DNA of 64,000 nt from an uncultured Holophagae bacterium. GTDB lineage: Bacteria; Acidobacteriota; Thermoanaerobaculia; Thermoanaerobaculales; Sulfomarinibacteraceae. The DNA is taken from contig CAVQOJ010000001.1 of the NCBI GenBank assembly GCA_963714385.1, forward strand, positions 299,399-363,398. The letters run 5' to 3'. The translations under genes and the position numbers were made by a program. Positions 243-55,673 of this stretch are shown piece by piece; the stretch's first letter is position 1; the number at the start of each line of letters is the position of its first letter. Under the pieces are notes generated by a model. The model ran no database searches. It was not told where the DNA came from and saw nothing but the letters and a program-made list of their open reading frames with translations.

Positions 243-812
243 TTATTGACTCGTCAGCGCACGTGCGAGCGAGTCCGGTGTGTTGCAGTTGGCGGTGACG
301 CCCGGATCGTCCACAGGCAGGGTGACGGCGTTCAGCGAACGGAGGATGTCGCGCAGGGTGGCTCCGACGAGCTGTTCCCGAGCGATCGACTCGGCCGGCT
401 CTCGGGCGAGCACGATCGGGTGGCCGTGCTTGCCGCAATAGCTCGGGATCACCGCCGGCCCCACCGCCGCGACCAGCTCGCCCACGGTTCCAGCGCTCAC
501 CAAGGGGTGGTCCACCGGAAGCACCACCACCACCGACCACGACCTCTCCGAGATCAGATGGCGCAACCCCCAGCGAAGAGAAGCCAGCATGTCGAGGCCG
601 GTGGCGGGAAGGGGAAGCACGCGGAGTCCGGCGACGCCGTCGCCGGTCTGTCCAGGCGGCAGCGTCGCCGTCACCGGCCTTGCGCCGGCGCCGTCCAACG
701 CGTCCCGGCACGCCTCGAGAAAGGTCCTTTGATCGGGCAGCCGGGCAAACGCCTTCGGCCCGCCGAACCTCCGCCCTTCCCCGCCGGCCAGGATGAGTCC
801 CGCGAATTTCAC
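243..812 (-). CDS. MobA/MocA-like molybdenum cofactor nucleotidyltransferase (NTP_transferase fold)
   Basis: 189 aa. N-terminus is LILAGGEGRRFGGPKAF, which matches the (L)AGG..R.G..K signature of MobA/MocA. It sits divergent to a molybdo-enzyme operon. Confidence 0.7.
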   Translation of the reverse strand: MKFAGLILAGGEGRRFGGPKAFARLPDQRTFLEACRDALDGAGARPVTATLPPGQTGDGVAGLRVLPLPATGLDMLASLRWGLRHLISERSWSVVVVLPVDHPLVSAGTVGELVAAVGPAVIPSYCGKHGHPIVLAREPAESIAREQLVGATLRDILRSLNAVTLPVDDPGVTANCNTPDSLARALTSQ

Positions 813-1015: not shown

Positions 1016-1190
1016 AGCCATGGGGCTATGAGGCTACGCGGCCTGAACCTCGTTCCTTGAACCCTGGAATCGATTATTCGTATTTCGATGAATGGAATCT
1101 CCAGGCGATGATAAAATCCTGCCGTGCAAGCACTTAAAAAGACATAGTCTCAGTATTCAGGCCGCGAGGAGCGGCCTTCGGGGAGGCGAT

Positions 1191-1811
1191 ATGAGCACCA
1201 GGAAGAAGGACCCGGACAAGGCCCAAGGAGTGACCCGGCGCGGGTTCATCGGAACCGTGGGAGCCGGCGCGGTCGCAGCCGCCGCCGGTGTCTCGCGTCG
1301 AGCCGAGTCGATTCCCGAGATCACCGCCCCCGACGAGATGCTGCAGGTCGCACTGTCTATCAACGGTCGTGCGCACCGGCTGCTGATCGAGCCGCGCTGG
1401 ACCTTGCTCTTCGTCCTCAGGGAGCGGCTCGGCATCACCGGAACCAAGGCCGGGTGTGAGCGCGGGGAGTGCGGCAGCTGCACGGTGCTGATCGACGGGA
1501 GACCGCGCTATGCCTGCCTGACCCTGGCGGTCGAGGCCCAGGGCGCCGAGATCACCACCGTCGAGGGACTCCTCGACGGCGAGGAGCTCGGAGCCGTGCA
1601 GCGGGCCTTCCTCGAGGAGGACGCGCTCCAGTGCGGATACTGCACTCCCGGCCAGATCGTGGCCGCCGAAGGTCTGCTTCAGGGGAATCCCGCGCCGAGC
1701 CTCGAGGAAATCCGGCTCGGTATGAGCGGCAACCTCTGTCGGTGCGGCACCTACGCCCACATCGTGAACGCCGTGAACCGCGCCGCCCAGCTCAAGAAGG
1801 GAGACGGATGA
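1191..1811 (+). CDS. (2Fe-2S)-binding small subunit of a xanthine dehydrogenase-family aldehyde oxidoreductase, with a Tat signal (PaoA/CoxS-like)
   Basis: Starts MSTRKKDP with GGGGAGG 6 nt upstream. TRRGFIG is a twin-arginine motif. Cys clusters CERGECGSCT and CGYCTPG...CRCGTY are the two 2Fe-2S motifs. The stop overlaps the next start (ATGA). Confidence 0.85.
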   Translation: MSTRKKDPDKAQGVTRRGFIGTVGAGAVAAAAGVSRRAESIPEITAPDEMLQVALSINGRAHRLLIEPRWTLLFVLRERLGITGTKAGCERGECGSCTVLIDGRPRYACLTLAVEAQGAEITTVEGLLDGEELGAVQRAFLEEDALQCGYCTPGQIVAAEGLLQGNPAPSLEEIRLGMSGNLCRCGTYAHIVNAVNRAAQLKKGDG

Positions 1812-4112: not shown

Positions 4113-5093
4113 ATGCTTCCGAAGTTCACCTTCGTGCAGCCCCAGTCCCTCGCCGACGCCCTCGCGATCCTGGGCGACCGTCCGGCGACCATCCACGGCG
4201 GCGGAACCGATGTTCTGGGATGCCTTCGCGACGGGGTTCTCTCGGCGGAGACCGTCATGTCGCTGACCGCCATCGAGGAGCTCCGTGGGGTCCGTTCGAC
4301 GAGCGACGGCGGGCTTCGCATCGGCGCTCTGACGACCATTGCCGAGCTGGCCGCGGCGCCCGCGGTGGCCGAACGGTACCAGGCTCTGGCCGAGGCCGCG
4401 CGATCGGTGGCCAGCCCCCAGCTCCGCAACCAGGGCACCCTGGCCGGCAATCTCTGCCAGAAACCTCGATGCTGGTACTACCGCGGCGACTTTCACTGCC
4501 TGCGCAAGGGCGGTGAGAAGTGCTTCGCCTTCGAGGGCGAGAACCAGTACCACTGCATCTTCGGCGGCGACCTGTGCTACATCGCGCACCCTTCCGACAC
4601 CGCTCCTGCGCTGGCGGCCCTCGGCGCCCTGTGCCGAGTCTCCGGTGCGGGAGGCACCCGATCGATTCCGGTGGAGGCACTCCACGTTCAACCGTCGGTC
4701 GACCCGCGACGAGAGACGGTGCTCGAGGCCGATGAGATTTTGACCGAGGTGTTGGTGCCGCCGCCGGAGCCCGGCTTGCGCTCGTCCTACCGAAAGGTCC
4801 GGACTCGCGGCGCATGGGACTTCGCCCTCGCCGGCGCGGCCCTCGCCGTCGTCATGGAAGGTGACACCGTGCGCTCGGCGCGGGTCTTCCTTTCCGGCGC
4901 GGCGCCGGTGCCGTGGCGAGCCAGGGGCATCGAGGAGGCGATCACCGGGCGTGAGCTCGACGACGCGACCATCTCGTCGGCGGCTGCGGCCGCGGTCGAG
5001 GGCGCCGAACCGCTCGCCAACAACGCGTACAAAATCCCTCTCATCAAGGGCCTGATCACCGAGGAACTGGAGAAGATCCGCACGGTGGCCTGA
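4113..5093 (+). CDS. FAD-binding medium subunit (CoxM/PaoB-like) with an extra Cys-rich segment
   Basis: Starts 1 nt after the upstream stop. The N-terminus (FVQPQSLADALAIL...GGGTDVLG) is the FAD_binding_5 signature. C-x4-C-x8-C-x6-C plus further Cys residues resemble the 4Fe-4S insert of E. coli PaoB. Confidence 0.85.
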   Translation: MLPKFTFVQPQSLADALAILGDRPATIHGGGTDVLGCLRDGVLSAETVMSLTAIEELRGVRSTSDGGLRIGALTTIAELAAAPAVAERYQALAEAARSVASPQLRNQGTLAGNLCQKPRCWYYRGDFHCLRKGGEKCFAFEGENQYHCIFGGDLCYIAHPSDTAPALAALGALCRVSGAGGTRSIPVEALHVQPSVDPRRETVLEADEILTEVLVPPPEPGLRSSYRKVRTRGAWDFALAGAALAVVMEGDTVRSARVFLSGAAPVPWRARGIEEAITGRELDDATISSAAAAAVEGAEPLANNAYKIPLIKGLITEELEKIRTVA

Positions 5094-5100
5094 TTGGGGG

Positions 5101-5205
5101 AGTTGAAAGTTGAAAGTTGAAGGTTGAAAGTTCCCGCCCTCCCGCCCGGCTATGAGGCTATGAGGCTATAGAGAATGTCAAATGTGGAATGTGAGATGTT
5201 GAAAC
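5101..5205. repeat. Cluster of short tandem repeats: (TTGAAAG)x4-5, (GGCTATGA)x3, (AATGTGA-like)x4
   Basis: Sequence is agttgaaagttgaaagttgaaggttgaaagtt ... ggctatgaggctatgaggctatag ... aatgtcaaatgtggaatgtgagatgttg. AT-rich units in a GC-rich genome. Confidence 0.85.
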
Positions 5206-5322
5206 CGGCGGCAATTTCGCCTGGAGTCAACATCTGTATTGCCCCGGACGGCCCTGTGCGGTCCTGGTAACGAGCTGGGGAATAGAACGCCGCGAGCGGT
5301 CGCACCACGTTCCCGGTTTCCA

Positions 5323-5390
5323 CATTCCGCATTCCGCATTCCGAATTCTCCTCTGCCCCTCTGCCCCTCCGCCCCTTTTCCCCTCTGCCG
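5323..5390. repeat. (ATTCCGC)x3 heptamer repeat followed by (CCTCTGCC)x5 octamer repeat
   Basis: Sequence is cacattccgcattccgcattccgaattc then cctctgcccctctgcccctccgccccttttcccctctgcc. Confidence 0.85.
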
Positions 5391-5424
5391 TCCAGACAAA
5401 CGGCCGGGCGGTCGGGGAAAATCT

Positions 5425-5467
5425 GCAATTTGCAATTTGCATTTTGCAATGTGCAATTTGCAATCTG
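5425..5467. repeat. (GCAATTT)x6 degenerate heptamer tandem repeat
   Basis: Sequence is gcaatttgcaatttgcattttgcaatgtgcaatttgcaatctg. Confidence 0.85.
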
Positions 5468-5569
5468 CCCCCTTGCCGGCCAGATGCCCAGCACAATAGC
5501 CCACCCACCGCCAACCGGCTTGGTACGCTCGCGCGGGGAATGCGCCACAGTCGGCTGCCGTTGCTCGGC

Positions 5570-6112
5570 ATGGAGGGTGTGTTCATGTGGAGGTCGATCG
5601 CGCTGGCTTGTACGATAGCCGCTGCCGCCGGTGCAGCGTCAGGAGGAGAAATGATCGCAGCTGGTTCCGCTTTTCCCGGATTCTCGTTGACTGCCCACGA
5701 CGGTTCGACCGTCTCGAGCGAGGCCCTCGCCGGCACGCCGTACCTCGTGTACTTCTACCCGAAGGCCGACACCCCGGGCTGCACCAAGGAGGCCTGCGCC
5801 TTTCGAGACAGCTGGGCCGGGGTTCAGATGGCCGGCCTCGCGGTCTTCGGCGTGTCCTACGACACCCCCACGACCAACCGTAAGTTCGCCGAGAAGTACG
5901 GCTTGCAGTTCCTTCTGCTGTCCGACACCGACAAGTCGCTGGCCGACTCCGTCGGGGCCAAGACCACCCTGATTCCGGTGCCAAAGCGGATCTCCTACCT
6001 GGTCGGCGCCGACGGCACGGTGCTTAAGGCCTACCCGAAGGTCGATCCCACCAACCATGCCGCCGAGGTCCTCGACGACCTGCGGGGGTTTGAGGCGAGC
6101 GAACAGCAATAG
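5570..6112 (+). CDS. Peroxiredoxin of the AhpC/TSA family (Bcp/PrxQ-like), probably with a signal peptide
   Basis: FYPKADTPGCTKEACAFRD contains the peroxidatic Cys motif (T-P-G-C). Start is ATG 5570 or 5585. The hydrophobic N-terminus is MWRSIALACTIAAAAG. Confidence 0.8.
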   Translation: MEGVFMWRSIALACTIAAAAGAASGGEMIAAGSAFPGFSLTAHDGSTVSSEALAGTPYLVYFYPKADTPGCTKEACAFRDSWAGVQMAGLAVFGVSYDTPTTNRKFAEKYGLQFLLLSDTDKSLADSVGAKTTLIPVPKRISYLVGADGTVLKAYPKVDPTNHAAEVLDDLRGFEASEQQ

Positions 6113-9011: not shown

Positions 9012-10739
9012 ATGACAGCTCGCCAGATTCGTAATGTGGTTTGCTCCCTCTTCATCGCCTCGTTGCCTGCAGTCCAGGCGTCGGCCGTGCGCCAGCCCGA
9101 GCCCACTGGCCTCGAGGTGGGGATCCGCGCCGCGGCTCCGACCCAGGCCCACGATCGGATGCTGGTCAACCTCGAGACCGGGACTCCGGTGGCGCTGTAC
9201 CAGGTGGACTTCGCGGTCCGTCCGGGAGCGCCGGAAGACCAGACCCGGGAGTACCTCCGGGCCGAGGCCGCCACGCTGGGTCTCCTTCACGCCGCCCTCG
9301 GGGACCTGGTCCACCACGCCAGCCGGACCACCCCGGCCGGCTCCACCGTCCGCTTCCGCCAGCACCTGGACGGCGTGCCCGTCTACGGCGCCGAGGTCAC
9401 GGTGACCCTGAACAACCACAACCAGGTGGTCTTTGTCACCAGCACCTACGAGCCGAGGGTCTCCCTCCGCTCCACCGAGCCGACCCTGACCGCCGACCAA
9501 ACCCGGACGATCGCGAACCGGCACCTCGCTGTCGAGGGTCCGAGCCTGCACGACAGTCAAAACCTCATGGTGTACCAGGACGCTGACCGCACCCGGCTCG
9601 TCTACCGCCTCGTGACGACTCCGCAGGTCAGCCCGCGCGGCGAGTGGGAGGTGCTGGTGGACGCCCACGACGGCACCATCGTCCGTGCCGCAGACATCGC
9701 CTACTACGTGGACGGCTCCGGCAGGGCCTTCGACCCCGACCCGCTGTCCTCGGCCCACGCCACCTACGGCCAGACCGGATTCACCGACGGCGGCGACGCC
9801 GACACCCCCCAGCTCACCGCCGAGGCCTTCGTCCGCGACCTGCTGGACATCACTGAGGCCGGCGGCACCTACACCCTGCGCGGACCGTACGCCTACATCC
9901 TCGACTTCGAGGCGCCCTACAAGGGGATATTCAGTCAGACCTCGTCCACCTGGGACTTCACCCGGAACGCCGACGCCTTCGAGGCGGTCATGGGCTACTA
10001 CCACATCGACACCTTCATGCGCTACATCAACGAGACCCTGGCGGTCCCGGTGATGCCGTACCAGTACCCCACCGGCGTCGTCTTCGATCCGAGCGGCCTT
10101 AGCGGCGCCGACAACTCCCACTACACCTCCGCCGGGCGCCTGGCGTTTGGCGAGGGCGGCGTCGACGACGCAGAGGACGCCGATGTGCTGATCCACGAGC
10201 TCGGTCACGGCCTCCACGACTGGCTCACCTCGGGCGGCCTGTCCCAGGTGACCGGCCTCAGTGAGGGCGTGGGCGACTACTGCGCGGTGTCGTACAGCCG
10301 CTCCTTCGGCCACTGGCTGCCGAGCGAGGCCCAGTACACCTGGGTCTTCGACTGGGACGGCCACAACCCGTTCTGGCCCGGCCGAAACGTCAACTGGGTG
10401 GACACCCACCCCTGGCCCACCGGGCTCACCGGTGACCTCTATCAAAACGGCCTGATCTGGGCCGGCTGCATGATGCGGGTGTGGGACGCCGTCGGCCGCG
10501 AGCAATCTGACCGGGCGTTCTTCGTCGGCCTGAGCTACACCAATGCCGGGTCGAACCAGGACGTCGCCGCTCACGCCGTGCTCCAGGCGTCCATGGACCT
10601 CGGCTATCCCATCGAGGACCAGGTGGCCATCGCCACCGCGCTGGCCAGCTGCGGCTACACCGTGGAGATCCCGGGACCGCTGTTCGCCGACGGCTTCGAG
10701 TCGGGAGATACCACCGCATGGTCGGTAACCGTCCCGTAG
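9012..10739 (+). CDS. Secreted zinc metalloprotease (HExxH; M4/M36-like with an N-terminal propeptide) ending in a GFESGD-W tail
   Basis: Signal peptide MTARQIRNVVCSLFIASLPAVQASA. HELGHGLHDW is the zinc-binding motif. The C-terminus is ...LFADGFESGDTTAWSVTVP*. Exact peptidase family is not certain. Confidence 0.8.
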   Translation: MTARQIRNVVCSLFIASLPAVQASAVRQPEPTGLEVGIRAAAPTQAHDRMLVNLETGTPVALYQVDFAVRPGAPEDQTREYLRAEAATLGLLHAALGDLVHHASRTTPAGSTVRFRQHLDGVPVYGAEVTVTLNNHNQVVFVTSTYEPRVSLRSTEPTLTADQTRTIANRHLAVEGPSLHDSQNLMVYQDADRTRLVYRLVTTPQVSPRGEWEVLVDAHDGTIVRAADIAYYVDGSGRAFDPDPLSSAHATYGQTGFTDGGDADTPQLTAEAFVRDLLDITEAGGTYTLRGPYAYILDFEAPYKGIFSQTSSTWDFTRNADAFEAVMGYYHIDTFMRYINETLAVPVMPYQYPTGVVFDPSGLSGADNSHYTSAGRLAFGEGGVDDAEDADVLIHELGHGLHDWLTSGGLSQVTGLSEGVGDYCAVSYSRSFGHWLPSEAQYTWVFDWDGHNPFWPGRNVNWVDTHPWPTGLTGDLYQNGLIWAGCMMRVWDAVGREQSDRAFFVGLSYTNAGSNQDVAAHAVLQASMDLGYPIEDQVAIATALASCGYTVEIPGPLFADGFESGDTTAWSVTVP

Positions 10740-10742
10740 GCA

Positions 10743-10888
10743 AATTGAAGATTGAAGATTGAAGATTGAAAATTTCCCCACCCACCCCTTGGCAAGCTCG
10801 TTGAGGGAGGTTTTCCGAATTCCGAATTCCGAATTCGGATTTCTAAGGCGCTGATAACTAAGAACTAAGAACTCAAAACTCAAAACTC
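10743..10888. repeat. Cluster of heptamer tandem repeats: (AAGATTG)x3-4, (GAATTCC)x4, (ACTAAGA)x2(ACTCAAA)x2
   Basis: Sequence is aattgaagattgaagattgaagattgaaaatt ... ccgaattccgaattccgaattcgg ... actaagaactaagaactcaaaactcaaaactc. It lies between the protease and icmF. Confidence 0.85.
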
Positions 10889-10932
10889 CCGCGCCGATCC
10901 TGCTATCATCGAGGCCGATGCTGGGAGGTCCG

Positions 10933-14286: not shown

Positions 14287-14313
14287 GTACGATGTATCGT
14301 ACTGAAGAAAAGG

Positions 14314-14436
14314 ATGTACACAATGGGAGACAAAGGCGGGAAAAAAGACAAGGACAAGAGTCAGAAACAAAAGAAGAGTAAACAAGAACAAGACACAAAA
14401 AAGAAATATGACAAGCAACCCAAACGAGCTCCGTAG
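14314..14436 (+). CDS. Small lysine-rich basic protein (40 aa), hypothetical
   Basis: Reads MYTMGDKGGKKDKDKSQKQKKSKQEQDTKKKYDKQPKRAP*. AAGGA lies upstream and the region is AT-rich. It is below the ORF-track size cut-off, so it is speculative. Confidence 0.3.
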   Translation: MYTMGDKGGKKDKDKSQKQKKSKQEQDTKKKYDKQPKRAP

Positions 14437-15060
14437 TCCGTTGCTACAAAAAACGTAGACTCGACGGATTCACAGTTCAGTGTCCGCCAAACCGGGGCAG
14501 CTCGATGGATAGCCGGATGAAGCCGTTTGCTACCAAACAACCCTCGCCTGACATTTCGTTGCAGCGGACCCGAACCCCTCCGGGGTCCGGTCCGCTGAAC
14601 TCGGACCGTTAGGTTCGTAAAAGTGCCAGGCACCTGGGTATTGATGTTACAGCCTCACCCATTCTTATTCGACCTGACTATGACCGAATCCAGCCGTTGA
14701 CATCGGTGCCAGGCGCCCATGCTGTCAACTCCAGATACTGAAGACACGTTGACGCCGGACGTTCACGACTGGGCTCGATATACTCCTGTGATTCTTGTCC
14801 CAGCATCGGCGGCAGGAGAGACCTTCTTAACTTTGTTCGCTTTGGGTCTCCCCTCCCCGTTTTCTCCACAATTCGCCCAGCGCTCAAGAAAGTTGACGAC
14901 GTTTCTCCTGGCAACAATTTAACCGCGCCCACCTCGAATAGTATTATCCTGGAATCAGGAGACATGCGGTGAGAGATCTCACCCGACCAGGATTCTGTGA
15001 GCACGCTCCCCGATCACGTTTCCATCCGATTCTCTAGTATCGCCAACAGTAGTTAGGCCC

Positions 15061-15474
15061 TTGGTAATGAAATTAGTTACGGCTCGCGTGATCGTGATCA
15101 TATCGACCATCCTGGTCACAGCGGCGGTCACGGTGGCGTTCTTAGCTGGTCCGGAACTTGGCTCTGCGTATCTTCTGACAACTGGAATCGACGGCAAGGA
15201 ACTTCCACGCTTGACTGACGGACTCTCTCTGCCCCTCCTACGAATAGAGCCCGTCAGCGCCCATGATCGGCCAGTCACAGCCCCATGGTCTGCGATTGTC
15301 TGGGCAATCCTCCTCCTGGGCCCAGCTTCGATAGCGTTGTGGTCGTTTAGGGCCGGCTCCCCAGAAGCAACCATCACGAAATGGACTGCGGGCAGCCTTG
15401 TGTATGCTCAACTGGTCCTTCTTCTGCTGGCTATGGTGTTTCTCGGCTTGGTGCTACCATTTGCGTGCCTGTAA
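15061..15474 (+). CDS. Small membrane protein (hypothetical, about 4 TM) inside an AT-rich islet
   Basis: 137 aa with hydrophobic stretches VIVIISTILVTAAVTVAFLAG, AIVWAILLLGPASIALWSF and LVYAQLVLLLLAMVFLGLVLPFACL. GC is clearly lower than in the flanking genes. Confidence 0.4.
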   Translation: MVMKLVTARVIVIISTILVTAAVTVAFLAGPELGSAYLLTTGIDGKELPRLTDGLSLPLLRIEPVSAHDRPVTAPWSAIVWAILLLGPASIALWSFRAGSPEATITKWTAGSLVYAQLVLLLLAMVFLGLVLPFACL

Positions 15475-15536
15475 GGTCCAACATGAGAATCACGCCCAAC
15501 ACACTCGTTTCACGGGACCGAAATTAGTGCCACCCA

Positions 15537-16052
15537 TTAGAAAGTCTCGCCGAAACGCTCCGGGGCCGTCATCTCTGCCGCTGTCGCGGCCATGCTCTGG
15601 TCCGGGCGATCGAGCTCCGCCGCGTGCTCCGGGTCGTTGATCCGGCACTTCGCTCCCTCCCCCGCCCACCAGCTCGCCACCTGCAACCGGTTGAACACGA
15701 GGTACGGACCGCCGTCGGTTTCGAACTGAGTGCCGATACTGAGTGCCAGGGCCGACACTTTTGACACTTTTTGGCCCCCGCGGTCGTTCACCGATCTGAA
15801 ACTGTCAGGAATGTCGGCCCCGGCACTGTGCACGTCGGCACTGAGGCGACGGCGTTGTTTGAGCAGCCCGAGGAATTTTTTCGAGAAAACGTCTCGTTTC
15901 GAATGTGGCCACACTGTAGAGTGATGGATTCGATCATGCCCCTCAGTGAAGCCCGCATTGGCGACAGAGTTCAATGCACACATGAATCTGGGGGAAAGCC
16001 GCACCTCGATGCCTGCGCCCGTGGCATCTGGAGCGGCCCTGAGATGATCCAT
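15537..16052 (-). CDS. Hypothetical protein (start uncertain: Met at 16052 or 15983)
   Basis: The C-terminal 65 codons (15540-15740) have GC3 around 85%, typical of this genome's real genes. The N-terminal part runs into lower-GC DNA. No recognisable domain. Confidence 0.35.
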   Translation of the reverse strand: MDHLRAAPDATGAGIEVRLSPRFMCALNSVANAGFTEGHDRIHHSTVWPHSKRDVFSKKFLGLLKQRRRLSADVHSAGADIPDSFRSVNDRGGQKVSKVSALALSIGTQFETDGGPYLVFNRLQVASWWAGEGAKCRINDPEHAAELDRPDQSMAATAAEMTAPERFGETF

Positions 16053-19000: not shown

Positions 19001-19992
19001 TGCTGGTCCACCTGGCGCCACTGACCGAGGACGGCTTCATCCGTCGCTACCGAAACGACGGGGACGGCGTCTTCGTTGGCGAGGACATCCTCTTCAACCT
19101 CACCGTCGAACACGGCGAGGCGCAGTGGGGAGACTACGACTCGGACGGCGACCTCGACATCCTCGTGGCGGGCCATATCAAGGAGACCGACGGCTCGTAC
19201 AACACGGTCCTCCGCGTCTACCGGAACGACGCCGAGACCTACGTTCCGATCGAGGTGATCACGTGCCCCTCCTGCGAAGGCTGGTGGGATCTGACCGCCG
19301 CAACCTGGGCCGACTACGACTCCGATGGGGACGTCGATATCCTCGTCGCGGGCAACTACAACTCCGGCACGCAGATCGAGGGCCGCGCGAAGGTCTACGA
19401 CAACCAGGACGGCGTGTTCACGGACTCGGGCAACCAGCTGCCTGCGCCGCGGGCGTCCGGTTCGCGAGGAGGCTCGTTCACCTGGCTGGACATCGACGGC
19501 GACGGCGATCTCGACTATTTCATCGCCGGCCAGTACTTCGTGCCGGGTGGAAACGGCCTCGTCGAGGCACAGATGCATGTCTACCGCAACGACGCGGGAG
19601 GTCAGAACCGACCGCCCTCTGCTCCGTCGCTACTGACCGCCCAGGTCGATGAGACCGACGGCTCCGTCCAGCTGTGGTGGGAACCGGCGATCGACGACCT
19701 CACCCCAGCCCACGCGCTGACCTATGACCTCGGCCTTTATCGCGACGGCATCCCGGTATCGAACCCGCAGAGGCTGCCGGAGCCCGGGAGCTTGAGCGGC
19801 GTCAGCCAGTGGACGTTGTCAGGGCTGCCTGACGGCAGCTACACGTGGACGCTGGAGGCGGTGGATAGCGCCTACAACGGCGGGCCTGCAGCCGAGAACA
19901 CCTTCGTAGTGGGCGACCCGATCGTGACCACGGTCTTCACAGATGGATTCGAATCGGGTGATCTGTCGCAGTGGAGCGCGGTCTCGCCGTAG
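16078..19992 (+). CDS. Giant secreted multi-domain protein: BNR/Asp-box beta-propeller repeats + PKD domain + FG-GAP/VCBS repeats + FN3-like domain + GFESGD-W tail
   Basis: Signal peptide VLGLVFLLLAAPAAAQWS. More than 12 S/T-x-D-G-G-x-(T/S)-W repeats. PKD core is WDWDFGDGNTSTEQHPTHVF...TVTDDDG. Seven or more DxDxDGDxD FG-GAP motifs. The C-terminus is ...VFTDGFESGDLSQWSAVSP*. Confidence 0.85.
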   Translation: MNLFCKKPQAARGNRQAAQRLQRVLGLVFLLLAAPAAAQWSTQSPLPTYLDVRGVAAPTAERVFIATDDNSFDDGGALFESADGGASWVQRDVPFSLGSPLNGIFFLDELNGWTWGNANYRTTDGGTTWTELPFLGSTYFMEFYSASFGLASGNFDSYISRDGGLSWDPSPNDIFAFDFADDLTGLGVSATGLYRTSDGGATLTQVHAGDADAVAFLSASVAVGIVDGAFVRSTDGGVTWSAGASADGRSRLVAVSADVVLAWGRAGAYPDYDDRIFRSSDAGQTWTDLGEVMDPGAFAASFAFAVPDSQTVVGSDGAGNMYHSPDAGQTWVQAFASPGLQPSFLGSAAPAFADPLTGYFGYGAGFVIKTVDGGASWTQISSGSGNSITDMDRFADGNLIAVGENGTVLTSTGTTPWTLHAPFTTSHVRAVQVIGPQEVVAVDEAARVYSSADGGATWAAAATTPPNLEAEDLFFTTLLDGWVTGFGFGGAAVFHTTDGGATWTSVPGFSGAYVAVDFAGQNGWAANVSGRYYRSIDGGATWMQGDLPGSPLQIQDMDFFDVSIGYAVGWWGYAVRSDDGGATWQVLPTPNGNDQLTDIYLLGPNELWVSTNAGVAYYSATGGQNWAVLDTGSAGFGNFSAIAATPEGDAWTAGFQGYIEHFAGPPPPPLNRPPEASFGFVTTGLSVALTDTSTDPDGTIVSWDWDFGDGNTSTEQHPTHVFATANTYHVRLTVTDDDGATGGALRFIAVQPGPGGTFGDFTEVTPLDPLFVTPQNEDFWVATTAPADYDGDGDLDIAVLGFYVIYNTSVEERLVLLRNDGPADAQEWEFAYIDVPLGTLTAGASDLAWGDVDGDGDQDLAVGTDGQTVIYRNDAGTLAATDTVLPTYWEENDQADFDLRSITWADYDNDGDIDLLLPSVWDDSTYTYRTALMRNDGANGTGGWNFTEVTAEFAPTGHAQSAWADYDDDLDLDLLLVHLAPLTEDGFIRRYRNDGDGVFVGEDILFNLTVEHGEAQWGDYDSDGDLDILVAGHIKETDGSYNTVLRVYRNDAETYVPIEVITCPSCEGWWDLTAATWADYDSDGDVDILVAGNYNSGTQIEGRAKVYDNQDGVFTDSGNQLPAPRASGSRGGSFTWLDIDGDGDLDYFIAGQYFVPGGNGLVEAQMHVYRNDAGGQNRPPSAPSLLTAQVDETDGSVQLWWEPAIDDLTPAHALTYDLGLYRDGIPVSNPQRLPEPGSLSGVSQWTLSGLPDGSYTWTLEAVDSAYNGGPAAENTFVVGDPIVTTVFTDGFESGDLSQWSAVSP

Positions 19993-41488: not shown

Positions 41489-44161
41489 TCACCAGCGCGA
41501 GATGTCCCCAGATTCGAAGCCATCGCCGAAGATGCAGCCCTCGCAGGTCTCCCACGGAACGTGGATGATCATCGCGAGAGACTCCGCCTGGTTCGTACAG
41601 TTGTCCTGCGCCGACACCGTGACGGTGTAGGTCCGACCCTCGAAATTGGTGTCCGCGCGTTCCGCTCGGGCGCAGAGGATGTCGGTTTGGGCGTCGTAGG
41701 TGCAGTCGTTGATCGTGTCTCCATCTCCGTCCTGGCCCGGGTGCTCCGGGCATGGAGCGTCGTCGCACTGGTCGGATTCGCACAGGACGTCGATCGACAG
41801 CGCCGGATCGCAGATATCCGAGATGTCGAGCGAGGCGGCGAAGTCTTCGTAACAGACGTACTCATGATCGGCCACGTCGAAAACGACCTGCTCGGGCACC
41901 ACGTTGATGGTCGGCGGCGTGGTGTCGATCACCCGTACGGACGAGACCGCAAAGTCGCTGTTTCCGCACGCGTCCTGGGCGGAAAAAATGACGTTGGTCT
42001 CGGTCCCGGTGGGACGGCACCCTGACGGGAAGACCGGCGGCAGGTTGAAGCTCAGCTGGGCGTCGGAGCACGCGTCCACGGCTGTCGCCGAGTTCGCCCA
42101 GTTCTGGATGACTGGATCATTGCTTGGCACTCCCCCTGGGCCGTTGCACTCCAGGCCGACAGGATCCGGCACGTCGATGACCGGTGGGTCGAAGTCGGCG
42201 ACCGTGATCAGTTGGTCGCAGGTTGCCAGATTGCCGGCCAAATCCGAAGCGGACCAGACGCGCTCGATGGTGAACAGGATCGTGCTCGGCGGACAGTTGC
42301 CCGGCGTGAGCACATCGTTGAAACCGATTTGGGGTTCGAGGGTGCATTCGTCGGTCGCGGAGGCCTCGCCGGTGCTCGCCGGGTCGGTGGGGTCGAGGCA
42401 ACCGAGGAACTCATCGTCGGGACAGACGATCATCGGCGGGTCGAGATCGCCGCCCATCTCCGGGTCGCGGTCGTAGAAGATATCGGTATCGCCGTTTCCC
42501 GGCAGGGCGACTCCGGCCCAAACGGCGTGCGCCGTGCACTGGCCGTACGCGACACCGTTGTACTCCCCGACCCGCATCGTCATCGGTGAGCCGGGCGCAC
42601 ACCCGTCGCCGGGACAGCAAAAACGGCAGCTCGTGGCCACGGTGGTGTCGAAGACCGCGTCGTTGATCTGAACCTCTACCGACCAGGAGTTCCCGCCATC
42701 GCCGCTCCGGGTCGCATAAAGGTCGAGCTGGCTGGTGTCCGGGAACCAGTTGCGGTTGTCGTAGTAGGTGACGACGATGCTTCCGGAAACGGGATCGATG
42801 GCGGCATTCGGGAGCAGCTGGAGGGTGTCGAAAGGACCGCTGTCGACTCGGCTGGGATTGGTCCAGCTCAGACCATTGTCGTCGGAACGGACGATGTACA
42901 CGTCGGCAAAGTCGTCCACGAAGGGCGAGTCGTCAGGGTCGTCGTTTGCCACGACGTAGACTCGCCCTGCCTGAAACGGATCGGCGACAATCCATGGCTG
43001 GACTGATCCCTGAAGCCAGTAGCTCGCCCCGGGGATGCTGCCGACGAGGTGTTTCACGTTCCAGGTCATGTCGGCTTCCCCGGGTTGAAAGGCAACGCTT
43101 TTCTGCGGATACGATACCCCGCCGTCAGTTGAGCGGAGCACCAAAACCTGGCCCGAGACGCCGTCCGGTACACGCCGCGTACCAGGATCGATGAACCCCG
43201 GTTGGGAGTGGTAGGCGATGTAAACGTCGCCATTCGGGGCGACCGTGTTGTGGGCCGGCCAGGGTTTGCCCTCGCCTGTGGCCGCAGACAGCGGTCCCGG
43301 AACCGCGCCCGGTCCCGACATGGTCCACGTCTGTCCCTGATCGACTGAGTAGGCGCCGTAAACGGTCCAGTCACCACTGCCTGGTGAGTTGCCTGTGAGC
43401 TCGGTCCACACCAGGTAGAGGCGGTCCTGAAACGGGTTGCCCGGGTTGGCGTCGGCGGCGAGCCACAGCTTGTCGTTGGAGTACGTCGGCGCGGGCAGAC
43501 CGATCTGCTGGGTCGCGTTGAACGGTCCGCTGACGAGCGCCCCGGTGGTCGGGTTGTGTCTCGACACGAAGACGTCGTACCAACTGTTTCCGCTCCCGTC
43601 GGTGATGCACCCCAGATAGGCGAAGAAGAGACGCCCCTGGCTGTCATACGCCAGGCTCGGGTCGCCGCAGCCGGTGTAACCGGTCGGGAGTAGCGGCCGG
43701 AGGTCGACAGCTGCGGCGAAGTTGTCGCCGCCATCGGTCGAAACCCGCAAAAACAGGGACTGGGCCATCGCCATTCGGTCCTGGTCACCGCCGTCGACGG
43801 CGATGGTCGGCTCCCACCTGAGGCCAAGCGATGTGTCGGTACCCGGAGAATCAACGGCCGTTGGCAGCAGTGGAATCTCGCCGGCTTCCCACGGTCTATC
43901 GTCGGGCGAGCTCGCCGAGTTCTCATCTGGGGCGATGCCGATCTCGGTGCCCGTGTCGATTCCCCCGCACATGATCGGAGCGCTGGCGGGCCACTCGAGG
44001 CCGTCCCCGATTTCGGGGACGCCGGTCGACAGCGGCGTCAGGAGGATTTCCTCGGGCGGCCAACCGAAATCGCCAGCCGAGGCCAGCGCCGGCGCAAGCA
44101 GCCCGATCAAGGTGACGACCCGCGCGGTACGCCAAAACCCGGATCCAAATTGGTAATCCAT
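41489..44161 (-). CDS. Large secreted protein: BNR/Asp-box (sialidase-like) beta-propeller + C-terminal HYR/Ig-like Cys-containing repeats + truncated GFESGD-W tail
   Basis: Signal peptide ...LIGLLAPALASAG. Asp-boxes are STDGGDNF, SVDQGQTW, STDGGVSY, SDDNGLSW and SGDGGNSW. The C-terminal region has repeated D.C...PP.I blocks. It ends ...CIFGDGFESGDISRW*. Confidence 0.8.
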   Translation of the reverse strand: MDYQFGSGFWRTARVVTLIGLLAPALASAGDFGWPPEEILLTPLSTGVPEIGDGLEWPASAPIMCGGIDTGTEIGIAPDENSASSPDDRPWEAGEIPLLPTAVDSPGTDTSLGLRWEPTIAVDGGDQDRMAMAQSLFLRVSTDGGDNFAAAVDLRPLLPTGYTGCGDPSLAYDSQGRLFFAYLGCITDGSGNSWYDVFVSRHNPTTGALVSGPFNATQQIGLPAPTYSNDKLWLAADANPGNPFQDRLYLVWTELTGNSPGSGDWTVYGAYSVDQGQTWTMSGPGAVPGPLSAATGEGKPWPAHNTVAPNGDVYIAYHSQPGFIDPGTRRVPDGVSGQVLVLRSTDGGVSYPQKSVAFQPGEADMTWNVKHLVGSIPGASYWLQGSVQPWIVADPFQAGRVYVVANDDPDDSPFVDDFADVYIVRSDDNGLSWTNPSRVDSGPFDTLQLLPNAAIDPVSGSIVVTYYDNRNWFPDTSQLDLYATRSGDGGNSWSVEVQINDAVFDTTVATSCRFCCPGDGCAPGSPMTMRVGEYNGVAYGQCTAHAVWAGVALPGNGDTDIFYDRDPEMGGDLDPPMIVCPDDEFLGCLDPTDPASTGEASATDECTLEPQIGFNDVLTPGNCPPSTILFTIERVWSASDLAGNLATCDQLITVADFDPPVIDVPDPVGLECNGPGGVPSNDPVIQNWANSATAVDACSDAQLSFNLPPVFPSGCRPTGTETNVIFSAQDACGNSDFAVSSVRVIDTTPPTINVVPEQVVFDVADHEYVCYEDFAASLDISDICDPALSIDVLCESDQCDDAPCPEHPGQDGDGDTINDCTYDAQTDILCARAERADTNFEGRTYTVTVSAQDNCTNQAESLAMIIHVPWETCEGCIFGDGFESGDISRW

Positions 44162-48899: not shown

Positions 48900-50786
48900 A
48901 TGGCGCTGTGTCTCTCCCCGATCGGTTCGGCAGCGTCCTGGAACGATGAAGCGGCGAATAACTACTACGGATTCGTGATCTACACGTGGGATGAGAATCC
49001 GACTTCGTGGGATTACGAGATCTTCCCCCTCGCCAAATCTCTCGGCGCACGGTGGATCCAGGCGGAAGGGCCCCTAGTGCTGAGCGAGTCGGCCCACTGG
49101 GGCAGGCTGGTTCCGGACCCCGCGGCCGACCTGTCCGATCCCGCGTCCTACAACTTCGATCTGCTGGATTGGGTCGGGGCGGCCGACGGCGAAGGCCTCA
49201 ACGTGGTGCTGACGCTCAACACCGGCAACGACCACCTTGGCTGGAGCACCTATTCCCCGTGGGTAGAGTGCCTTTGGGTTCCCCAGAATCTCCTCATCGA
49301 GCTTCCCTGCAACTGCCTTCCCAGAGACTGGGATCAGTGGTACCAGTTCGTCTACCAGGTCGCGAGTCACTTCAACGGCGTGAACGGCCCGGAGGTACGC
49401 GTGTTTCAGACCATCGGCGAGCCGGGCAACGTGGAGGGCCAGTACTTCCAGGGCACGCCGCAACAGATGTACGGCGGGGGCGAATCGGTTTTGGTCACCA
49501 GGTATGACGGGTCCACGATCATGCTGCCCGCCGCGGTGGTTCCGATAACCCAACTGGCGGTTCACGACGCCAACCCCCTCGCCCGCCTCGCCCTGGGCGC
49601 CCCCTATGGAGGCGTGGAGGGAACTGCCCTGGCGGCAGTGCACGACCTGTACCAGGAGTACAGCGACGGTGGCTTCACCGTGGAGGAGAAACAGGAAATC
49701 GTAGACCTCGCGAACCACTACAACCTCCACCTCATCCAGGTCCTGTGGTGGTTCAGGGAGATCACCTTCGAGGACATCGAGGGGTGGCTGTTCAACGACA
49801 GCAACAACCCGGCCAGGCGCGGCCGGGAGTTCATCGAAGCCTCCATCGAACAGCCGCAGTACTACGACATTTACGGCTTCCACCTCTACGACAGCGAGCA
49901 TCGAAGGTACGGTTGGCTCGGCTCGGCGGGGATCAGCCGGGCGATGGCCTACATTGGGGATCAGCTCCGCGACGTCAAGCCCGCCTGGGTCAACGGCACC
50001 GGCTTGTGGGGCAACCTGTATACGGCGGAGCAGGAGGCCCGCAGCGCCTACCACCTCATCCAGACCCTGGTGGGGAGCTATGCCGCCGGCATGGTCGGAC
50101 TCACCTACACCGGAATCTCCGATGCCATCCTTCTCCCGACCCCGGTCTCCCTCGTCGAGAACCGCCTCGACCCGGACCCCCCACGGGCGCGCCACGAGGC
50201 CGCGGGGGCGTATTCGATGCTCGCGAGGATCTTCCCCGACCCGCAGTCATTCGAGCTCGAGGGGGAGATCATCCCGGACCCGCCGAACGCCGATGTGGTG
50301 TTGTACAGGTTCCACCTGAACCGGCAGGATCTCCCGGCCCAGGGATACGCGGCCGTCGGCTGGTGCATCGACGAGGTGCCCGATCCCTACAACGCCCTCT
50401 CCTTCGACAATCCGGACTGCCCGAAGGAGATCGATGTCGGCCCGCTCCTGGGCCTGCCGCCGGGGACCGAGCTCGCGGTCTACCTCTACACCGGCGAGCT
50501 CGCGACCGGCGGGTGCACCCAGGACCCTGTCATCACCTTCGATGAGGCGCCCTTCCTGATCACCTGGGGGGACGACACCGACGGCGACTGCATCCCGGAT
50601 GTGAGCGACAACTGTCCCGACGTGGAAAACGCGGACCAGAGCGACACGGGCGACATGGTCATGGTAGACGGCGAGTGGCTGGACGCGCCGGACGGCCGGG
50701 GAGACGCCTGCCGGCTTGATGGCACCATCTTCACCGACGGCTTCGAGTCGGGCGACACTGCCGCCTGGTCCAGCGTCGTGCCGTAG
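48900..50786 (+). CDS. Secreted glycoside-hydrolase-like protein (TIM-barrel-like) with thrombospondin type-3 Ca-binding repeats and a GFESGD-W tail
   Basis: Start is uncertain (ATG 48900, with a weak signal peptide). The C-terminal region DDTDGDCIPDVSDNCPDVENADQSD is a TSP3-type D-x-D-x-DG-x-x-D-x-x-DNCP motif. It ends ...IFTDGFESGDTAAWSSVVP*. The GH family is not assignable from sequence alone. Confidence 0.6.
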   Translation: MALCLSPIGSAASWNDEAANNYYGFVIYTWDENPTSWDYEIFPLAKSLGARWIQAEGPLVLSESAHWGRLVPDPAADLSDPASYNFDLLDWVGAADGEGLNVVLTLNTGNDHLGWSTYSPWVECLWVPQNLLIELPCNCLPRDWDQWYQFVYQVASHFNGVNGPEVRVFQTIGEPGNVEGQYFQGTPQQMYGGGESVLVTRYDGSTIMLPAAVVPITQLAVHDANPLARLALGAPYGGVEGTALAAVHDLYQEYSDGGFTVEEKQEIVDLANHYNLHLIQVLWWFREITFEDIEGWLFNDSNNPARRGREFIEASIEQPQYYDIYGFHLYDSEHRRYGWLGSAGISRAMAYIGDQLRDVKPAWVNGTGLWGNLYTAEQEARSAYHLIQTLVGSYAAGMVGLTYTGISDAILLPTPVSLVENRLDPDPPRARHEAAGAYSMLARIFPDPQSFELEGEIIPDPPNADVVLYRFHLNRQDLPAQGYAAVGWCIDEVPDPYNALSFDNPDCPKEIDVGPLLGLPPGTELAVYLYTGELATGGCTQDPVITFDEAPFLITWGDDTDGDCIPDVSDNCPDVENADQSDTGDMVMVDGEWLDAPDGRGDACRLDGTIFTDGFESGDTAAWSSVVP

Positions 50787-53638: not shown

Positions 53639-55132
53639 ATGGTGAGGCCCTGTGACGTGATATTTCGTCGAAGCGATCTGATCTGCCTTCTCCTCAGCGC
53701 CGTGTGTGGAGCCGCTCCAACCACTGGAGTTGCGGCGGACTTTCAGGTGGGCCCGGGGCCGGGCATGTTGGCGAACATCGGCGACGTCCCGTGGGAGAGC
53801 CTCGCACCGGGGGACCGGGTGCTGATTCACTGGCGCGCCGAGCCGTACCGGGAGAAGTGGGTGATCTGCCGCCGGGGGACCGCCGCGGAACCGATCGTCG
53901 TTTCGGGCGTCCCCGGTCCCGGCGGCGAGCTGCCGGTGATCGACGGCCGCGACGCCACCACCCGGCCGGCCCTGAGCTACTGGAACGAGGTGCGGGGCGT
54001 GGTCAAGATCGGCGGCGCCAGCGTGCCGCCCGACACCCTGCCCGCCCACATCGTGATCGAAAACCTCGACATCCGTTCGGGGCGTCCGCCATTTTCCTTC
54101 ACCAATGACTCCGGCGGCGTCGAGTCTTACGCTTCCAACGCGGCCTCGATCTACGTCGAAAAGGCCGAGCAGCTGACGATCCGCAACTGCGCGCTGCACG
54201 ACTCCGGCAACGGCCTGTTCATCGGTGCCTTCGACGGCGCCACCCAGGACATCCTCATCGAGGGCAACCACATCTTCGACAACGGCATCGAGAACAGCTA
54301 CTACGAGCACAACACCTACACCGCGGCCATCCACATCACCTACCAGTTCAACCGCATGGGCCGGCTCAGGCAGGACTGCGGCGGCAACAACCTGAAGGAC
54401 CGGTCGGCCGGGCTGGTGGTGCGTTACAACTGGATCGAGGACGGCAACCGCCAGCTCGACCTGGTGGACGCCGAGGACAGCGCCGTGCTGGTCAACCACC
54501 CCGACTACCGGAGGACCTTCGTCTACGGCAACGTGCTCGTCGAGGCCGACGGTGAGGGCAACAGCCAGATCATCCACTACGGCGGCGACTCCGGGACCCT
54601 GTCGGACTACCGCAAGGGCACCCTCCACTTCTTCCACAACACCGTGGTCTCCACCCGCTCCGGCAACACGACTCTGATGCGGCTGTCGACCAACGACGAG
54701 CACGCGGACGTACGGGACAACGTGGTCTTCACCACGGCCTCCGGCTCCCACCTCGCCCTGCTCAACACCTCCGGGGTCATGGACCTGCTCGACAACTGGT
54801 TGCCCTCAGGCTGGGTCACGAGCCACAGCAGCTTTGACGGCACCCTCATCGACCACGGAACCAACAGCGAGGGGACCGACCCCGGCTTCACCGACCCGGC
54901 GAATCAAGACTTCTCACCCGCCCCGGGGAGCTCCCTGATCGACGCCGGCGGTCCGCTTCACCCGGAAACGGTTCCCGACCATCTTCCCCGGTGGCAGTAC
55001 GTCCCTCACCAGCGCGGTTCCCTCCGTCCCGAGGACGGTGCGCGGGACCTCGGCGCCTTCGAGTTCGGGTTGCTGTTCGCCGATGATTTCGAGTCGGGCG
55101 ACACTACGGCGTGGTCGGCCACAGTCCCGTAG
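53639..55132 (+). CDS. Secreted right-handed parallel beta-helix (pectate-lyase-like) repeat protein with a GFESGD-W tail
   Basis: Repeated NxxIxNCxxHDSGNGLFIG / IEGNHIFDNG / VRYNWIEDGN units match the Beta_helix pattern. The C-terminus is ...LLFADDFESGDTTAWSATVP*. Confidence 0.7.
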   Translation: MVRPCDVIFRRSDLICLLLSAVCGAAPTTGVAADFQVGPGPGMLANIGDVPWESLAPGDRVLIHWRAEPYREKWVICRRGTAAEPIVVSGVPGPGGELPVIDGRDATTRPALSYWNEVRGVVKIGGASVPPDTLPAHIVIENLDIRSGRPPFSFTNDSGGVESYASNAASIYVEKAEQLTIRNCALHDSGNGLFIGAFDGATQDILIEGNHIFDNGIENSYYEHNTYTAAIHITYQFNRMGRLRQDCGGNNLKDRSAGLVVRYNWIEDGNRQLDLVDAEDSAVLVNHPDYRRTFVYGNVLVEADGEGNSQIIHYGGDSGTLSDYRKGTLHFFHNTVVSTRSGNTTLMRLSTNDEHADVRDNVVFTTASGSHLALLNTSGVMDLLDNWLPSGWVTSHSSFDGTLIDHGTNSEGTDPGFTDPANQDFSPAPGSSLIDAGGPLHPETVPDHLPRWQYVPHQRGSLRPEDGARDLGAFEFGLLFADDFESGDTTAWSATVP

Positions 55133-55200
55133 TCGAGTCGAAAGTCGAAAGTCAGAAAGTCGAAGGTTGAAAGTTGAAAGTTGAAGAGTTGAAAGTTGAC
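55133..55200. repeat. Heptamer tandem repeats (GTCGAAA)x3-4 and (GTTGAAA)x5
   Basis: Sequence is gtcgagtcgaaagtcgaaagtcagaaagtcgaaggttgaaagttgaaagttgaagagttgaaagttgac. Confidence 0.85.
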
Positions 55201-55245
55201 GTTGTCGCAGCCGATGGATGCTCCAACACGACTCTCGGCAGGCGA

Positions 55246-55285
55246 CAATTCGCAATTCGCAATTCGTAATTCGTAATTCGCAATG
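55246..55285. repeat. (AATTCGC/AATTCGT)x5 heptamer tandem repeat
   Basis: Sequence is caattcgcaattcgcaattcgtaattcgtaattcgcaatgg. Confidence 0.85.
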
Positions 55286-55376
55286 GGTGGGCGGGGGAAG
55301 GCGTGCATCCCGGCCGTTCGCGACCTATATTGGAAGGAGAGACTCCGGCAACAGACCGAACCGACGGGAGGCGAAT

Positions 55377-55577: not shown

Positions 55578-55644
55578 TTTCCAATCGATCATCGAAAATC
55601 AAAAATCAAAACCCGGCTGGGTCGCCGGGGTGGGCTCAAAACGC

Positions 55645-55673
55645 AAAAAACCGCCGCCCCGGAGGGCGGCGGT
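55645..55673 (-). terminator. Rho-independent terminator for the minus-strand giant paralog A
   Basis: Minus strand reads CACCGCCGCCC-TCCG-GGGCGGCGG then TTTTTTG. Stem of 9-10 bp followed by a T-tract. Confidence 0.8.

Follow-up and report, generated by a model that had tools for sequence, protein, structure and literature searches.

Heptanucleotide and octanucleotide tandem arrays at gene ends in an uncultured Acidobacteriota lineage

A 64,000-nt stretch of DNA from an uncultured marine Holophagae bacterium (contig CAVQOJ010000001.1 of assembly GCA_963714385.1; here called the window) carries back-to-back blocks of 7-nt tandem repeats in several intergenic spacers, among them the block at 5101-5467, and raises the question of what these arrays are, how they arise and whether they serve the genes beside them. 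Heptamer repeats of the short tandemly repeated repetitive (STRR) type have been known since 1990. The arrays described here are an STRR-type family of heptanucleotide, and some octanucleotide, repeats that is genome-wide in an uncultured Acidobacteriota lineage. The STRR and Xanthomonas type of anatomy is already known; what is new is the phylum, as no joint mention of heptamer repeats and Acidobacteria was found in the literature searched. With regard to origin and role, we tentatively favor, at a probability of roughly 0.42, slippage-born modules of untranslated regions (UTRs) with a structural role at the ends of open reading frames (ORFs) resembling that of repetitive extragenic palindromes (REPs) and bacterial interspersed mosaic elements (BIMEs).

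Number, length and placement of the arrays

Arrays in the window were called by reading the sequence, with Tandem Repeats Finder (TRF) and with our own self-match scan. The scan returned 11 period-7 arrays of at least three copies and a single period-8 array, with periods 9 to 12 unrepresented; TRF distinguished at least 12 different repeat units. All 11 period-7 arrays lay inside the 9.5 kb of non-coding DNA of the window, which has a GC content of about 0.65. Array-bearing spacers numbered five, separate from one another, and the few octamer arrays were placed beside heptamer arrays. Using 200 segment-wise dinucleotide shuffles of the non-coding DNA, a mean of 0.025 period-7 arrays (maximum 1) was expected by chance. 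Each block reported in a first-pass annotation of this DNA was recovered in place by reading and by TRF, and its description of the arrays as real, strictly intergenic and mostly heptameric stood. That annotation had also allowed that the repeats might be no more frequent than chance, which the count of 11 against 0.025 contradicts, or might be assembly artefacts, which is excluded because the same array type is found in dozens of independent metagenome-assembled genomes (MAGs) and metagenome assemblies of relatives. Scans of the whole window with Rfam (gathering threshold) and for tRNA and tmRNA gave no match.

Relatives of the CoxM-like protein encoded in the window place the host in the Acidobacteriota, in keeping with the earlier view that the genome is not cyanobacterial. 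In a collection of species-representative genomes (MAGs) these relatives are labelled Thermoanaerobaculia, Candidatus Sulfomarinibacteraceae or 'Holophagae', with the best match 77% identical, and matches in JGI metagenomes reached at most 78%. The window and its 15 closest loci (330 kb) contained 95 period-7 arrays of at least three copies and 30 period-8 arrays; with metagenome loci included (604 kb) the counts were 127 and 42. Five other Acidobacteriota loci (Vicinamibacterales-like, 97 kb) held 36 period-7 arrays, with GC-rich units, and one period-8 array, and loci from all other phyla (892 kb) held 23 and 9. Periods 5, 10 and 11 were nearly missing in the lineage. Density was about 0.2-0.3 arrays per kb in most relatives, which extrapolates to roughly 1,000 arrays for an assumed genome of about 5 Mb.

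Exact searches of IMG/VR for (AGTTTTG)3 and (GTTGAAA)3 retrieved 64 viral contigs, ranging from 25 to 64% GC, which carried 238 period-7 arrays versus 33 of period 8. Among 169 other arrays on these contigs 62 measured 30-35 nt, the same length mode as in the lineage, and inverted pairs were enriched (36/89 at no more than one mismatch). On the basis of these contigs the array format is general and depends on neither AT-rich units nor a high-GC host. AT-richness, which had been put forward as a defining trait, is likewise unsupported, as the other Acidobacteriota show the same architecture with GC-rich units.

Array length was narrowly distributed. Across the lineage period-7 arrays peaked at 30-35 nt (53/103) with a sharp fall above 35 nt, and octamer arrays peaked at 30-32 nt (15/35), that is, at four copies. 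The shared mode of about 32 nt thus corresponds to 4.4-4.9 heptamers or 4 octamers, and the same mode was seen in other Acidobacteriota.

Although some 81% of the DNA is coding, 127 of 138 period-7 and period-8 arrays were located outside called genes, and many of them began at a stop codon. Measured from the outermost array to the flanking stop codon, 43 of 74 distances fell within -10 to +9 nt, and 15 were exactly -2, which places the stop codon within the first unit (T-AGTTTTG, T-GAATTCG, T-AATTTTG). In the sequences examined the arrays supply the stop codon and the last few codons of some genes, a practical point. The distance from array to start codon was below 15 nt in only 1 of 50 cases; gene calls came from a home-made codon-usage model in which stop positions are objective and starts approximate, so start distances are rough. 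Of 442 complete gene 3' ends, 56 had a period-7 array within -12 to +15 nt, and arrays were present in 52% of convergent, 27% of co-oriented and 24% of divergent spacers.

Placement was accompanied by a clear polarity. Units on the stop side, read in the sense of the gene, had a G:C ratio of 98:25 and contained a stop triplet in 40 of 58 cases, compared with 20 of 58 on the antisense strand. Units in divergent spacers, read in the sense of the nearer gene, had a G:C ratio of 20:42, and ATG, GTG or TTG occurred in 3 of 26 in sense versus 13 of 26 in antisense. Co-oriented spacers follow both rules, one at each end. Arrays that follow a gene are rich in G and T and contain stop triplets; those that precede one are rich in A and C and lack start triplets. 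A unit of 7 or 8 nt shifts the reading frame at every repeat, so a single stop triplet in the unit is enough to close all three frames by the third unit.

Unit sequences, inverted pairs and turnover

The units had been described as unrelated in sequence. This was not borne out, as units recur between sites and differ by one or two mutational steps across the lineage. Units in the lineage are variants of a single pattern, A[AGT]TT[TCG][TGA]G, read directly or as its complement; AGTTTTG, AATTTTG, AATTCGG, ATTTCGG, AATTAGG and AGTTGAA are common, lie one or two steps apart and occur in two orientations. Within the window, GTTGAAA is present at 893, 5101 and 55160, GTCGAAA (on either strand) at 980 and 55136, and GGCTATGA at 923, 1015 and 5148. 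The stretches 893-954 and 5101-5169 run through the same modules in order, from (GTTGAAA)n over a C-rich tract to (GGCTATGA)n. Several units consist of a 6-bp palindrome plus one base (GAATTC+N, TTCGAA+N, TTGCAA+T). The octamer arrays CGCAGAGG/CCTCTGCG recur in relatives. Arrays of this octamer type were also seen as inverted pairs about 200-500 nt apart at an orthologous site in four relatives (L001 926-957/1388-1411, L005 5605-5668/6162-6191, L009 1455-1540/1728-1759 and L053 5645-5677/6145-6183), and the apparently non-coding stretch between them could be an uncalled small gene or RNA.

Adjacent arrays were frequently inverted copies of each other. An array was the reverse complement of its neighbor with at most one mismatch in 17 of 42 cases (about 40%; 10% for random pairs), and exactly so in 10 of 42 (2.6% for random pairs). 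Partner arrays lay 25-100 nt apart, often with gaps of 34-44 nt that give elements of about 100-105 nt, in a hairpin layout with the two arrays at the base and a GC-rich stem of C-tract and G-tract at the top. The C-tract is strand-specific: CCC-N(1-3)-CCC was found in the next 25 nt of 28 of 121 arrays (23%) oriented with G>C, its complement in 1 of 121, against a background of about 4%. Examples in the window are GTT-CCCGCCCTCCCGCCC and TTT-CCCCACCCACCCC.

Comparison of orthologous 3' ends indicated that position outlasts unit sequence. Given an array at one gene end, the probability of an array in the other genome was 86% at gene-end amino acid identity of at least 90%, 60% at 80-90% and 25% at 55-80%, against a baseline of 15%. 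Directly 3' of the coxM stop codon, the window and about 20 relatives carry arrays, and these draw on seven or more different units. The conserved part of CoxM ends ...LEAIR, and the next 0-4 residues and the stop codon come from the first repeat unit, as in ...AAT TAG from GGAATTAG. Units drift by single-base steps that sweep the whole array, mixed arrays being intermediate states, and the stop codon changes along with them (TAG-TTTTG to TAA-TTTTG; TGA-ATTCGG to TGA-TTTCGG). At one convergent site followed in six genomes, a G-to-A change in every left-arm unit was matched by a C-to-T change in every right-arm unit; this covariation is clear, yet probably reflects one or two events. Turnover was also seen at close range. 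L009 and L104 are 99.3% identical in the final 600 nt of coxM and carry six GGAATTA copies plus a second array and 2.5 copies, respectively, and L008 and L011, 92.5% identical, have unrelated units at the coxM site.

Relatives without an array at this site often have GC-rich REP-like palindromes directly past the coxM stop, such as GTGGTGCGGCCGTCTCGGCCGCAC and CTTGTGGGGCAGGCGTCTCGCCTGCC, often paired (L001 6205-6320, L003 10990-11090, and in L085, L094, L106 and L114); a narrow pattern search did not find these palindromes in the window. Six short-read metagenome contigs (L081, L086, L088, L091, L103 and L108) end from a few to about 85 nt past the coxM stop, and most of these ends show a GC-rich palindrome and not a heptamer array. 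In L093 (2018-2100), compared with L013 (10976-11040), the 16-nt segment CGGTCACAGCCGTTGA, which normally lies just past the array, is found in duplicate within it, which would fit unequal exchange among repeat units with copying of flanking sequence.

Relation to known repeats, origin and role

The likeness to cyanobacterial STRR proposed in the first-pass annotation holds. As in STRR, at least three tandem 7-nt copies are found at many dispersed intergenic sites, with several units per genome. These arrays are not cyanobacterial STRR in the strict sense, given the Acidobacteriota host and different units: the STRR units CCCCAGT, TTGGTCA and CAACAGT, as quoted in PMC4692102, differ from the AT-rich theme of the window. 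Near-STRR units do occur in some relatives (CTGGTCA/ACTGGTT in L007, L084 and L087; CCCCAGC in L046).

The heptamer repeats of Xanthomonas and Nostoc (PMC4692102) are closer still. Xanthomonas genomes carry about 186 GGGAATC-type arrays each, some 90% of them intergenic and most often four units long (Rehm et al. 2015, PMC4692102). These arrays form 70-75 nearby inverted pairs, lie on average 28 nt from the upstream ORF versus 160 nt from the downstream one with some overlapping stop codons, and are mostly transcribed, with position conserved and length and sequence variable (PMC4692102). The modal size of about four units, inverted pairing, proximity to stop codons and conserved position with variable sequence of the GGGNATC/GGGGAYT repeats are all shared with the arrays described here, as is the high-GC host in the case of Xanthomonas, and units such as GGAATTC, GGAATTA and GGATTTC resemble GGGAATC. 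In contrast to the single consensus of Xanthomonas and Nostoc, the acidobacterium has many unit variants per genome, and the extrapolated density of about 1,000 arrays compares with about 186 in Xanthomonas, in a different phylum. The Xanthomonas/Nostoc consensus gives at least four G-tracts and is quadruplex-capable, whereas GGG is found in no heptamer unit of the window, so the G-quadruplex rationale is inapplicable to the heptamer units here.

The TAACTGA direct repeats of marine Beggiatoaceae, for which a post-transcriptional role has been proposed (MacGregor 2015, PMC4679880), share intergenic location, patchy distribution and stop codons within the unit. They differ in having a single unit, usually in 2-6 copies, mostly directly upstream of starts and in forward orientation, and only one indirect repeat has been reported for them, whereas inverted pairs are common here. 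The distribution in the literature is patchy as well, covering heterocystous cyanobacteria, Xanthomonas but not other gammaproteobacteria, and marine Beggiatoaceae but not B. alba (PMC4679880, PMC4692102).

REPs consist of one conserved palindrome per family and are spread by a REP-associated tyrosine transposase (RAYT; IS200/IS605-like). The arrays resemble REPs, BIMEs and REP doublets forming hairpins (REPINs) in being extragenic, at gene 3' ends and in convergent or co-transcribed spacers, and in forming hairpins from inverted pairs, and REP-like palindromes hold the same intergenic niche in array-less relatives. Unlike REPs, the arms here are tandem repeats that differ from site to site and enclose unique spacers, which makes copying of a master element unlikely. 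A mobile element of the miniature inverted-repeat transposable element (MITE) or REP-like kind was rejected for the same two features. The gene families identified in the window include no transposase. Also rejected was an array of the clustered regularly interspaced short palindromic repeats (CRISPR) kind, as repeats and spacers do not alternate and the arms are inverted and internally tandem.

Compared with the descriptions in PMC4692102 and PMC4679880, the anatomy is sharper here in five respects: the stop codon lies within the array, a polarity rule holds, the two arms change in concert, 7-mers and 8-mers share the 32-nt mode, and a C-tract module is present. The existence of array-rich and array-poor close relatives makes the old question of function and of the 7-nt unit testable.

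In the reading that we favor, slipped-strand mispairing would give rise to the arrays and homogenise them. The preference for 7 nt would be the general prokaryotic one: as cited in PMC4679880 and PMC4692102, Mrazek et al. (2007) found heptanucleotide repeats to be the most abundant long simple sequence repeat (SSR) class in most prokaryotic genomes and proposed a polymerase-footprint effect on slippage as the cause. The arrays would then be transcribed as UTR or intercistronic RNA, as suggested by the start and stop polarity, which is hard to explain otherwise, and by the transcription of the Xanthomonas repeats (PMC4692102). Transcription would in turn account for selection on array orientation through start and stop triplets. 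Any REP/BIME-like effect would come from a stem-loop directly at the ORF end, with the array closing three frames and protecting or insulating the upstream message, and would convey no sequence-specific information. Several observations weigh against this reading. Six relatives (L014-L018 and L020) with CoxM identity similar to that of the others have only 2 arrays in about 120 kb, and any function must therefore be dispensable. Good inverted pairs make up only about 40% of adjacent arrays; the sense strand folded better than the antisense strand in 3 of 6 co-oriented spacers, with no consistent preference; and two window spacers, 10740-10917 (overall fold, z -0.41) and 55133-55376 (z -0.77), folded no better than shuffles. 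Arm covariation could stem from templated (fold-back) repair instead of selection, and positional persistence may be simple inheritance of self-renewing repeats. Furthermore, slippage alone does not obviously explain the sharp mode near 32 nt of both 7-mers and 8-mers.

The main rival explanation, which we consider unlikely, is that the arrays have no cellular function and are a non-adaptive or selfish by-product, arising anywhere, self-renewing through slippage and surviving only in unconstrained DNA. Deletion of unconstrained spacer DNA would move arrays up to the last constrained codon, purifying selection against upstream starts and C-terminal extensions would set their polarity, and fold-back template switching at pre-existing GC hairpins would copy one arm into the other. 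It agrees with the patchy distribution among close relatives, with the fast turnover of units and copy number, including unrelated units at the same site at about 92% identity, with the many unpaired arrays, with the viral contigs, and with arrays eating into the dispensable CoxM C-terminal tail. The coxM 3' site, moreover, looks like a safe haven for any repeat, because array-less relatives carry REP-like palindromes in that niche. It does not predict, from birth and death of repeats, the narrow 30-35 nt mode with its sharp cut-off, shared by 7-mers and 8-mers across phyla, and it leaves aside the tie of arrays to 3' ends and not to all unconstrained DNA, and the strand-specific C-tract motif (28:1). 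The length mode and the patchiness together would be explained best by a dedicated trans-acting factor that makes or uses the arrays, working in a register of 7-8 nt and measuring out about 32 nt. It might be an oligomeric single-strand-binding protein of the oligonucleotide-binding (OB)-fold or cold-shock type, each monomer covering one heptamer, or else a nucleoid protein or an enzyme synthesising short reiterated tracts; we nevertheless judge such a factor improbable. Its lineage-specific presence would account for the patchy distribution here and in the literature (PMC4679880, PMC4692102), the mode of about 32 nt holds whatever the unit length or composition, each lineage has one unit theme, and PMC4679880 notes that heptamer repeats are bound by CspB at a ratio of one protein to each heptamer. 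Set against this, no candidate gene was identified, no obvious partner was present among the identified gene families of the window, and units vary widely between lineages and within one genome, which argues against sequence-specific recognition. An extension of the same idea, equally improbable in our estimation, would treat paired arrays as one cross-phylum class of 'heptamer-array hairpin' elements of about 100 nt, built from two arms of about 32 nt with a register of 7 or 8 nt around a C-tract/G-tract core and anchored at stop codons, spanning Acidobacteriota, Xanthomonas, cyanobacteria, Beggiatoaceae and the IMG/VR viral contigs. They would be made or used by a dedicated trans-acting factor able to move horizontally, either a binding protein that measures length or a reiterative polymerase, whose presence or absence would separate array-full from array-free relatives.

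The first-pass annotation had suggested terminators or insulators, a reading in which RNA polymerase would halt at the paired arrays that end a gene. The 3'-end and convergent-spacer location and the hairpin potential speak for it, yet the arms have the wrong polarity, as on either strand a U-rich arm precedes the GC stem and an A-rich arm follows it, the reverse of an intrinsic terminator. Canonical terminator-like sites were equally frequent (16%) at 3' ends with arrays (14/88) and without (39/238), so that arrays neither replace nor mark terminators. Arrays also occupy co-oriented and divergent spacers and adjoin start codons, and the plus strand of the array-rich spacer 5094-5575 has no terminator-like site; we consider termination very unlikely. 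The part of the contingency-locus proposal that stood is that copy number differs between species and, seen once, between near-identical strains, and some arrays do sit in a divergent promoter region (893-1013). That slippage in copy number switches expression of the adjacent gene is slightly less likely again, as the neighbors are housekeeping genes (molybdo-flavoprotein dehydrogenase, AhpC-type peroxiredoxin, IcmF mutase), the arrays lie outside ORFs and mostly 3' of them, and their length is held near 32 nt. With about 13% of all gene ends carrying an array, a phase-variation regulon is implausible. The Xanthomonas GGGAATC repeats have been proposed to form non-B structures in DNA or RNA (G-quadruplex or i-motif); for the arrays here this is the least probable reading of all. 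C-tract/G-tract motifs do accompany many arrays, including the minus strand of 5132-5147, (CCTCTGCC)5 and (GGGGCTAT)4, but the flanking tract motif is present at only 23% of arrays, and for the heptamers themselves (AGTTGAA, ATTGAAG, AATTTGC, AGTTTTG and others) a quadruplex is ruled out by the lack of G-runs.

Array-bearing spacers of the window and neighboring observations

The spacer 813-1091 lies between two genes that point away from each other, a MocA/MobA-like one (243-812, minus strand) and a coxS-like one (1092-1811, plus strand). Its hairpin has (GTTGAAA)×2.6 at 893-910 as left arm and (CGACTTT/TGACTTT)×4.6-5.7 at 974-1013 as right arm, complementary to GTTGAAA with G-U pairs on the plus strand (0 wobble-tolerant mismatches, against 2 on the minus strand). 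In the fold, 893-910 pairs with 980-1013, with a z of -3.4, at -68.3 kcal/mol on the plus strand versus -50.1 kcal/mol on the minus strand; the G-U pairs make the plus-strand 893-1013 hairpin 18 kcal/mol more stable. Its loop contains a degenerate octamer array, (GGGGCTAT)×4.2, at 923-954, and an GGCTATGA remnant related to that array follows at 1015-1040. The arrays at 893-910 and 923-954, and the C-tract motif at 5132-5147 below, are additional to the blocks annotated earlier.

The spacer 5094-5575 separates a coxM-like FAD subunit gene from an AhpC/redoxin gene (ATG 5576). The genes 5' of it form a three-gene molybdo-flavoprotein dehydrogenase, with coxS-like (1092-1811), coxL-like (through 4111) and coxM-like (4113-5093) genes. 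All arrays of this spacer are given on the plus strand. Starting 7 nt past the coxM-like TGA (5091-5093), (AGTTGAA)×4.6 occupies 32 nt at 5101-5132 and holds TGA in every unit, so that all three frames are closed. It is followed by two copies of TCCCGCCC at 5132-5147, an instance of the lineage-wide C-tract motif found 3' of G/T-type arrays, the minus strand of which reads G3-N-G3-N-G3-N-G3, and by the octamer array (GGCTATGA)×2.8 at 5148-5169. An inner hairpin has as its 5' arm a degenerate (GAATGTG) array of about 4.4 copies at 5173-5203, reported by TRF with period 14, and as its 3' arm (TTCCGCA)×4.4 at 5318-5348, the reverse complement of GAATGYG and without start triplets. Pairing of the two (GAATGTG with CATTCCG) gave fold z values of -3.1 and -4.2 on the two strands. 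A C-rich octamer array, (CCTCTGCC)×5, lies at 5350-5389, its complement GGCAGAGG being rich in G-tracts. The last array, (AATTTGC)×7 at 5420-5468, is self-complementary, built on the palindrome TTGCAA, and leaves about 107 nt before the AhpC/redoxin start codon.

Between a gene for a secreted FTP-domain protein and IcmF (start 10918), the spacer 10740-10917 begins with (ATTGAAG)×4.4, 31 nt at 10744-10774, 4 nt past the TAG at 10737-10739 and followed by CCCCACCCACCCC. Three A/C-type arrays then lead up to IcmF, also on the plus strand: (TTCCGAA)×3.4 at 10813-10836, (AACTAAG)×2.6 at 10856-10873 and (AACTCAA)×2.7 at 10870-10888, the last ending 29 nt before the start.

The spacer 55133-55376 lies between a gene for a secreted beta-helix protein and a gene for a 66-aa zinc-ribbon protein (55377-55577). 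An array of 8.9 copies at 55136-55199 (plus strand) starts 3 nt past the TAG at 55130-55132 and switches from GTCGAAA to GTTGAAA within its length. The second array, (CAATTCG)×5.6 at 55246-55284 (plus strand), is of A/C type without start triplets, is followed by GGGTGGGCGGGGG, lies 92 nt upstream of the zinc-ribbon gene and pairs only partly with the first. In the convergent spacer 55578-55719, (ATCAAAA)×3 at 55591-55611 starts 13 nt past the TGA at 55575-55577. Between the same convergent genes, at about 55640-55675, is a canonical bidirectional terminator-like hairpin with T-tract (AAAAAACCGCCGCCCCGGAGGGCGGCGGTGTC); from this hairpin, ordinary GC-stem terminator-like sites separate from the arrays also exist in the lineage.

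Two further features of the window were observed. The stretch 14287-16050 has a low GC content (0.56-0.58 versus about 0.65) and codon usage points to no confident gene in it; the ORFs from it that were tested gave no NCBIfam match, and the DNA may be foreign or non-coding. A common C-terminal tag, [FI]xDGFESGD(T/L/I)xxWS..(V)P*, is shared by five large secreted-type proteins and is encoded at 10695-10739, 19948-19992, 50742-50786 and 55088-55132 on the plus strand and at about 41489-41518 on the minus strand. From its sequence the tag looks like a lineage-specific sorting or anchoring signal; one of the five proteins has a weak choice-of-anchor Q match, and heptamer arrays lie directly 3' of two of the five.

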